A stretch of 64,000 bases of DNA, taken from assembly GCA_044892525.1 (NCBI GenBank), contig CM097885.1:30692001-30756000 (forward strand), in the 5' to 3' direction. Source of the DNA: Schmidtea polychroa (lineage: Eukaryota). The notes beneath the pieces are model-generated. The model worked only from the letters and a program-made list of their open reading frames with translations, did not search any database and was not told the origin of the DNA. The position numbers were made by a program, and so were the translations under genes. This document shows positions 8,364 through 9,390 of this stretch, piece by piece. Each line of letters begins with the position of its first letter. Position 1 is the first letter of the stretch.

Positions 8364-9390
8364 AGTAGTAGGATGTGTCACCACTGGCACACCCCCGGGG
8401 GGGCTAAAATTTTTTTTCAAGGTCAAAATTTAAACAAAGACATATGACTCATCAAGGTCATTGAAACAAAGACCATGACTCATCCTTTGACTCATCAAGG
8501 TAATTGAAACAAAGACCATGACTCATCCAATGACTCATCTAATTTCTCAAGGTCATTTAAACAAAGACCATGACTCATCCCATGACTCACCAAGGTCATT
8601 TTCAAGGTCATATGACTCATAATATGACTCATCAAGGCCAAAATTTTTTTCAAGGTCATTTAAACAAAGGTCTCGATTCATCAAGGCCATTTTCAAGGTC
8701 ATATGACTCATACTATGACTCATCAAGGTCATTTTCAAGGTCATATGACTCATCCAACGAGTCACAAAAATTTTCAAGGTCATTTAAACAAAGACCATGA
8801 CTCATCCAAAGTCATTCTCAAGGCCATATGACTCATTCAAGGTCATTCTCAAGGTCATATGACTCATACTATGACTCACCTAAATTTTCAAGGTCATTCG
8901 CAAGGTCACCTGAGTCATTTTCAAGGTCGCATGACTCATCCAAGGCCATTCTCAAGGTCATATGAGTCATCGAGATGAGTCATCAACGTCATATTATTAT
9001 TTTTAAAAAATATTATTTTTATTATTATTTTAAAAAAATATTATTATTTTATTTTTAATTTCTCAAAGTTCTCGCCAACCAAAATTATTCATCGATAGCT
9101 CATTTTAAAGCTCAATCCAAGTCCTTTCCAATGAGCCATATATCTTGTTATTAAGATTATTATTTCTAAAGATATTATTATTATTATTATTATTATTATT
9201 ATTATTATTATTATTATTATTATTTTTATTATTATTATTATTATTATTATTATTATTATTATTATTATTATTATTATTATTATTATTATTACTATTATTA
9301 TAATTATTATTACTATTATTATTATTATTATTATTATTATTATTATTATTATTATTATTATTATTATTATTATTATTATTATTATTATTA
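8364..9390 (+). repeat. left TIR of outer Polinton, including tandem motif array and (ATT)n
   Basis: Inverse-matches 40112-40972 with indels in the repeat array. Confidence 0.9.
8415..8992. promoter_or_regulatory. tandem array of TGA(C/G)TCA (AP-1 consensus) and TCAAGGTCA (NR5A/ERR-type) motifs
   Basis: About 20 TGA(C/G)TCA and about a dozen TCAAGGTCA by eye; mirrored at 40455-40890. Confidence 0.6.

Follow-up and report, generated by a model that had tools for sequence, protein, structure and literature searches.

Why do both ends of a DNA-virus-like transposon of a planarian consist largely of words that match the binding sites of host transcription factors, and what keeps the words there? 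The question arises from a 64,000-nucleotide stretch of the Schmidtea polychroa genome (contig CM097885.1, positions 30,692,001 to 30,756,000; hereafter the window), where two short words are repeated densely in a pair of terminal inverted repeats (TIRs). The first is TGA(C/G)TCA, which we take to be the AP-1 site, and the second is the nuclear-receptor (NR) word TCAAGGTCA. Other bZIP dimers and NR6A/GCNF can also read such words. The NR words match TCAAGG(C/T)CA, given as the NR5A monomer site (PMC11102866). We determined what carries the arrays, whether the words are conserved beyond the DNA between them, and which explanation fits them best.

Results

The arrays lie in the terminal inverted repeats of a Maverick

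The element at 8364-40972 is a Maverick (Polinton) by its ends, duplication, polymerase and integrase, and the arrays sit within its true terminal inverted repeats, with AG/AGT termini (Table 1). It measures about 18.2 kb without the nested element, and several of its genes are broken. The two copies of its 6-bp target duplication agree at five of six bases; the right copy, GATATG, also matches the empty site, which is visible in the other arm of the flanking palindrome. TIRs, AG/AGT termini, the 6-bp duplication, a protein-primed polymerase and an rve integrase are all shared with Mavericks/Polintons (polintoviruses, adintoviruses), as would be the candidate ATPase and the likely capsid, and the size falls within the 12.7-24.6 kb given for vertebrate Mavericks in the accessible text of PMC8097293.

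The gene assignments are of unequal strength. The rve match (E 3e-5) lies under its cut-off and the domain is interrupted; the packaging ATPase is a candidate by P-loop matches, with A32 at only E 0.004; and the capsid candidate has Atlas look-alikes named major capsid or DJR-like, with recognition below threshold and no Pfam match. The first gene inward of the left array is the RING gene. Its predicted 44-nt intron (9593-9636) keeps both GT-AG and length in 3/3 copies, with exon 2 open, and the TATA-like TATAAAT ahead of it (9523-9529) is weak, being the end of an AT microsatellite. The integrase ORF contains an in-frame (TAA)n expansion that yields a poly-isoleucine run.

The nested Maverick provides an internal control, as its TIRs contain none of the words. 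It encodes a DJR capsid, an integrase with a PLA2-like domain, an ATPase, a protein-X-like ORF and PolB, and its TACTTA duplication is perfect. The outer Maverick itself sits in one arm of a palindromic repeat of about 6 kb (6580-8363 plus 40973-41945; 42227-45010) with a RING-H2 ORF in each arm (7235-7903, 43687-44355); a further copy of the repeat lies at about 51434-52569. Gypsy-like LTR retroelement ORFs (gag with zinc knuckles, protease-RT-RNase H, integrase) occupy 45113-49246.

Table 1. Features of the outer Maverick in the window
Feature	Coordinates	Strand	Remarks
Left target-site duplication copy, 6 bp	8358..8363	+	AATATG
Outer Maverick/Polinton	8364..40972	.	AGTAGTAGG ends, TIRs, target duplication, PolB, integrase, likely ATPase, likely capsid
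Left terminus, outside the array	8364..8416	+	AGTAGTAGG, family-specific short repeat, C/G tract
Left motif array	8417..8991	+	20 AP-1 words, 13 TCAAGGTCA, 19 CAAGGYCA, 6 AAACAAAG
Inner left TIR	8992..9390	+	AT tract, conserved block, (TAT)n; mirror at about 40112-40454
RING gene, inward-facing	9572..10140	+	PF13920
Protein-primed family B polymerase (PolB) region, two ORFs	10453..14365	-	PF03175 on C-terminal ORF, E 2e-9
Nested, unrelated Maverick	16941..31389	.	TIRs of ~990 bp, target duplication TACTTA
Likely major capsid protein (part), family marker	31602..32678	-	Atlas look-alikes 0.97-0.98
Retrovirus-like integrase + chromodomain, microsatellite-interrupted	34049..35215	-	rve + Chromo matches
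Likely packaging ATPase, two ORFs	35833..36460	-	weak P-loop/A32 matches
TBP-like gene	36560..36997	+	PF00352, E 1.6e-13
Right motif array	40455..40892	-	15 AP-1 words, 11 TCAAGGTCA, 13 CAAGGYCA, 3 AAACAAAG
Right target-site duplication copy	40973..40978	+	GATATG

Word content of the two arrays

The first-pass annotation had estimated by eye roughly 20 AP-1 words and a dozen receptor words at each end, and exact counts bear this out. Positions 8415-8992 hold 20 TGA(C/G)TCA (17 TGACTCA and 3 TGAGTCA, 16 of them full 9-mers), 13 TCAAGGTCA and 19 CAAGGYCA, while 40455-40890 hold 15, 11 and 13, respectively. Against shuffled sequence, the check that it had proposed, the words averaged 0.06-0.29 and never exceeded 3 in 1,000 dinucleotide shuffles, and the remaining ~63 kb of the window contain only 7 TGASTCA and 2 TCAAGGTCA/TGACCTTGA. 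A third word, AAACAAAG (AACAAAG), which we take to be TCF/Sox-like (HMG-like), had been overlooked; its shuffle maximum was 2 (counts in Table 1). Exact 9-mers together with AACAAAG cover 52% of the left and 50% of the right array, and 70% and 68% at one mismatch. The words are organised in motif repeats of 21-43 bp, the commonest junction between an AP-1 and an NR word being the palindrome GTCATATGAC; TGAC/GTCA is common to both words.

Both words had also been described as lying in both orientations, which is true of the near-palindromic AP-1 word but not of the receptor word, since all copies of the latter point inward in the window copy (13:0 and 11:0). Family-wide, inverted receptor words are present in 28 of 70 arrays, 66 inverted against 1,506 forward. 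Nor is the right end the mirror of the left that it was thought to be: the two show 84% BLAST identity and unequal numbers of units.

A variable-number repeat at about 1,800 ends

The inner boundary of the array, which occurs once per array, was found 1,800 times in the 781-Mb genome and its reversed control not once; a 39-nt array unit occurs 1,537 times. The arrays are a variable-number repeat at about 1,800 ends across the genome. All 114 capsid copies scored were 96-100% identical, and 112 had no stop within the match. Seventeen end pairs were fetched, of which 13 could be scored and 4 were not scored; the 6-bp target duplication was perfect in 13/13, and the two arrays of one element differed by 6-531 gap bases and 5-42 mismatches. 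Perfect duplications flanking unequal arrays indicate that this variable-number repeat gains and loses units while the element inserts or afterwards. The 70 arrays examined are 321-1,231 bp long, and the median count is 21 for AP-1 and for NR words alike.

The genome-wide load of the words is high. We counted 97,461 TCAAGGTCA against 3,031 reversed controls (32x) and 67,878 ATGA(C/G)TCAT against 2,876 (24x), and the share of the focal array type is estimated at about 1,800 x 21 = 38,000 of each word. In a sample that covers only 0.7 Mb, the first 100 TCAAGGTCA listed, 81 fell in five dense clusters, four of them array ends and one with the 38-bp period of passenger repeats described below.

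Two unusual arrangements were met among the copies. One element of about 1.2 kb (L017:230-1500) consists of two ends only around a (TAA)n tract and abuts another end. At L082:4114-5300 an end of the focal family directly adjoins an end of a second family (82% capsid identity), which suggests that one Maverick inserted at the terminus of another; L027 shows a like arrangement. Among viral contigs (viral_contigs), the capsid search gave seven candidate stretches, none confirmed, and a composite 17-mer of the array had 0 matches; elsewhere the capsid search yielded only three metagenome contigs of 1.5-2 kb, too short to include an end.

Words are conserved while the DNA between them changes

Spacers as conserved as the motif cores had been named as the result that would speak against a function of the words, and the reverse was found. 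Units from the 70 arrays (30 best BLAST matches and 40 retrieved by an exact 39-mer, two of the 70 being the window's own) were compared in four unit contexts matched by total mismatch, with 188-469 units each; the copies are related and positions recur across contexts. These four shorter contexts replaced a scan of a 43-nt unit (9 mismatches), the 3' end of which mixed unlike contexts. A variant was called widespread when present in at least 10 of the 70 loci. Widespread variants were seen at 0/36 fixed NR positions, 0/7 positions of AACAAAG and 6/30 fixed positions of the AP-1 word, against 10/21 spacer positions, 9/18 degenerate NR positions, 3/5 positions at the AP-1 centre and 4/9 at the AP-1 flank. 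For fixed versus spacer positions Fisher p = 3e-4, a value that is indicative only, because the arrays were chosen by similarity and are related. Rare variants occurred at a similar rate in all classes (0.008-0.020). Thus the cores do mutate, as rare variants are found everywhere, but the mutations do not spread, as widespread ones are absent from the fixed NR positions. Five of the six AP-1 exceptions, all included in the 6/30, stem from a single context, where they appear together in 10-13 units; they are probably misassigned units with an A/T tract in place of the AP-1 word.

A census of the words gave the same picture. Among 1,560 AP-1 words there were 1,275 TGACTCA and 152 TGAGTCA (1,427 exact), so that the commonest variant is the equivalent site, the next one being found 21 times. 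The 1,495 NR words comprised 1,284 CAAGGTCA, 43 CAAGGCCA, 32 CAAGGTCG, 25 CAAGGGCA and 19 CAAGGACA. By the available tests the words are non-random and appear to be under selection, from which we infer a function.

Candidate host binders

The host genome plausibly encodes binders for both words, judging by protein sequence. A predicted nuclear receptor (L116) combines the P-box ESCKG with an Ftz-F1 box; its top PDB matches are SF-1 and NR5A2 (E 1e-32), and its best homologues are all platyhelminth FTZ-F1 proteins. Two bZIP candidates, one Jun/GCN4-like (L143) and one Fos-like (L141), have short domains with E about 2e-7. No match to what we take to be the ERR-type P-box was present among 30 of the 53 receptor-domain matches.

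Published gel shifts bear on the receptor word, although they concern the receptor of a related species on other probes and not L116 on the array. In the supplementary data as available (PMC8673669 S4), Schistosoma mansoni FTZ-F1 bound every YCAAGGTCA probe, one of which carries the flank CAAGGTCATTTAAA also found in the array, and bound neither CGAGGTCA nor two CAAGGCCA probes. CAAGGCCA, the commonest NR variant in the arrays (43/1,495), may thus not be tolerated in flatworms; for that base this weakens the argument that variants fall at tolerated positions, yet it fits the dominance of T there.

Other Maverick families and passenger elements

Ends of other Maverick families were compared: words were counted at a single end of each family, no more than three copies were inspected, and families are named by capsid identity. 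The 95.5% family has 17 NR and 4 AP-1 words, with the NR words in new repeats of 17-18 bp. The 94% family has only 3 NR and 1 AP-1. In the 82% family we counted 7 NR, 10 AP-1, 6 HMG-like words and 1 CRE behind a different terminus; its spacers are wholly different and align only in pieces of 36-52 nt. The ends counted in the 77.5% and 65% families have none of the words and contain other repeats instead. The former (L074, L078) show repeated TATCGCGC-containing units, and the latter (L098) repeated CACTATAG and TATGGTTCTA units; these repeated words are candidate sites for other host factors. In all, three families besides the 94% one are without the words. Among further elements with Maverick-type ends, L172 has 7 AP-1 and 2 CRE words in GC-rich spacers. 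L166 and L168 each contain 6-7 TTACGT(A/C)A (shuffle maximum 2), and L173 only 1. The NR word alone is repeated in at least four different spacers.

The family survey indicates that the words persist beyond the spacers around them, and that lineages differ in their words and may lose them. The nearly bare 94% family and the three bare families show that the battery is dispensable for Mavericks at large, and tandem repeats in the ends of other families that such arrays arise readily.

Six elements were examined, three being foldback passengers without core genes and three deleted gene-bearing copies. Each arm of the three foldbacks keeps the array and a RING homologue (35-43% identity). At fixed positions, 19 passenger-type arrays had changed by 1.19% and 28 gene-adjacent arrays by 1.07%, and the non-array TIR block next to the arrays showed about 5.5% pairwise difference in passengers and gene-adjacent copies alike; a relaxed constraint in passenger arrays was thus not seen. 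Some passengers (L008, L012, L020, L028, L045, L046, L057, L061) have extra 38-bp NR-only repeats inside the main array, with AT-rich spacers and up to about 24 consecutive copies. Others (L172, L176-L178) are foldbacks with Maverick ends, a GC-rich AP-1 and CRE cluster and a RING homologue per arm, in which no core genes were found.

Discussion

A probable enhancer of the element's own

The array is likely the element's own enhancer, which would recruit host bZIP and NR5 factors to its inward-facing early genes (probability about 0.6). Words that stay fixed while the intervening DNA changes point to a host-driven on-switch belonging to the element. Slippage or unequal exchange would make the units, and selection would act through replication of the element, copies with better batteries replicating more. 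In a permissive cell, ends that bind a signal-induced bZIP factor and a cell-state receptor could open the chromatin of the element. Inward transcription would then reach the RING gene first and afterwards the polymerase and TBP-like genes. In adenovirus, too, an early gene, E1A, adjoins the genome end. Our best reading, by analogy with baculovirus hr regions and adenovirus ITRs, is of a battery under selection that host factors would drive in the service of the element itself. The first-pass annotation had read the array as a homotypic enhancer that ties the element to stress or wound signalling and to a nuclear-receptor cell state and could also act on host genes nearby. The conserved words and the candidate binders support this in part; from the behaviour of AP-1 elsewhere, a coupling of the arrays to injury would be plausible.

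Alternatively, and much as NFI and Oct-1 serve adenovirus ITRs, host factors might bind the array chiefly to assist a replication origin at the end of the DNA or to open that end for excision, with a secondary role in transcription. Protein-primed replication starts at the termini, and at either end of the element 50-120 bp separate the array from them; passengers that lack core genes preserve the array equally well, and the ends-only element L017 retains it. There is precedent in adenovirus ITRs (PMC6410123), and baculovirus hrs do both jobs according to the accessible text of PMC13513840. The RING gene, however, is still present in each arm of the three foldback passengers examined, and at least 20 sites with a 2-3-fold range in length would be more in keeping with an enhancer of additive action than with an origin of fixed geometry. 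We consider this role unlikely to be the main one; it is compatible with an enhancer and the two are not exclusive.

A second alternative is that the conserved unit is a TGAC/GTCA site or hairpin for a protein encoded by the element, the AP-1/NR5 likeness being partly incidental. Among the products of the element are several orphan proteins, TGAC/GTCA is common to both words, and the junction most often seen between them is palindromic. Moreover, the most variable fixed base in both words is the same one, the A of TGAC on either strand (3.5% and 5.8%); inside the arrays its variability is 3-6 times that of the core bases beside it, with C, G and T all found in its place. A general hypermutability of this base was ruled out, as only 3/56 sites were variable outside arrays. 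The excess may come from a bound protein, a hairpin or a base modification, and it counts against the AP-1 reading, because the symmetry of AP-1 does not predict it. Against an element protein, the conserved footprints span the full known words (CAAGG, the TCA half, the flanks), several spacers carry amplified NR words on their own, other canonical bZIP words are amplified in other families, and among the proteins of the element none was recognised as binding DNA at such a site. On balance we regard this explanation as quite unlikely.

The array as a neutral minisatellite, made by slippage from one chance seed that held the words and kept uniform by concerted evolution, would agree with unit numbers that can set the left and right arrays of an element apart by as many as 531 gap bases, with the frequency of tandem repeats in these TIRs and with the short shared seeds that link families. 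But concerted evolution should spread core and spacer variants equally, which is not what was observed; exact motifs make up 50-60% of the array, and spacers turn over completely between families with the words unchanged. This makes neutrality very unlikely.

Persistence through co-option as enhancers of nearby host genes is highly improbable: enhancers work in either orientation and about 1,800 dispersed array ends must include some near genes, but it is young, dispersed copies, still flanked by perfect duplications, that show the constraint, which points to selection through replication of the element, and beside the window copy, where the surroundings are another palindromic repeat, no host gene was identified. 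Nor would co-option sit easily with S. mediterranea, whose Polintons are silenced by piRNAs and concentrated in the B compartment, and in which transposon derepression is tissue-specific and tracks the opening of cell-type chromatin, as far as the accessible texts report (PMC8532177, PMC10558129). This pattern would fit lineage-specific batteries, but it also suggests that most copies are shut.

Comparison with known systems

Host-factor sites in viral repeats are of a known kind, and arrays of them in Maverick TIRs were not found reported in a search of literature that covered few subscription journals. The published accounts of Maverick TIRs, in the portions available, give lengths and end motifs only (PMC8097293, PMC6431247, PMC8502044), whereas here the TIR is made up of host-factor words in variable number, on which selection appears to act.

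Baculovirus hrs come closest, being repeated viral cis-regions with a variable number of units and CRE/TRE bZIP words; they are enhancers and origins whose activity correlates with motif count (PMC13513840, accessible part). Unlike the Maverick arrays, they are internal to a circular genome, consist of 30-bp palindromes read by the viral IE1 and, in that text, have 0-2 TRE each; the Maverick array stands at the termini and combines 15-45 AP-1 words with a nuclear-receptor word. EcoRI-centred 30-bp palindromes in units of about 70 bp, as in hrs, were not found in the array, which consists of 21-43 bp repeats in a Maverick TIR, so that the likeness is one of analogy only. Adenovirus ITRs are likewise ends of a linear, protein-primed genome with NFI and NFIII/Oct-1 sites that enhance replication, according to the available sections (PMC6410123), but they are 116-209 bp long with single fixed sites, without a variable-number array, an AP-1/NR5 battery or integration.

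The words themselves have been described elsewhere, singly and together. SINE B1 has NR5A words in a repeat bound by the pioneer factor Nr5a2 (PMC11102866), and in Drosophila AP-1 and Ftz-F1 words occur together in JNK-driven genes, ftz-f1 being induced by JNK-Fos (PMC4610234), both as stated in the accessible text. Those sites belong to a retroelement or to host genes, whereas here about 20 + 20 sites occur per end of a DNA-virus-like element.

Implications

Tentatively, Maverick lineages might bear exchangeable host-factor "addresses" (AP-1 + NR5, NR5 alone, AP-1 + CRE, PAR/ATF-like, others) that split cell states between them. The AP-1 + NR5 clade would then be a virus independent of helpers that injury signalling awakens in NR5-positive cells, and the arrays of this clade, holding the majority of the genome's perfect AP-1 and NR5 sites, would be numerous enough to titrate or redirect those factors; we think such a scheme possible but doubtful. 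The different word sets of the families suggest a readable code for the cell tropism of transposons. In S. polychroa, motif-enrichment and ChIP studies could be dominated by these repeats. A battery of named sites would make it possible to test directly what triggers animal Mavericks and polintoviruses, and in which cell type, and the arrays may show what wakes Mavericks up.
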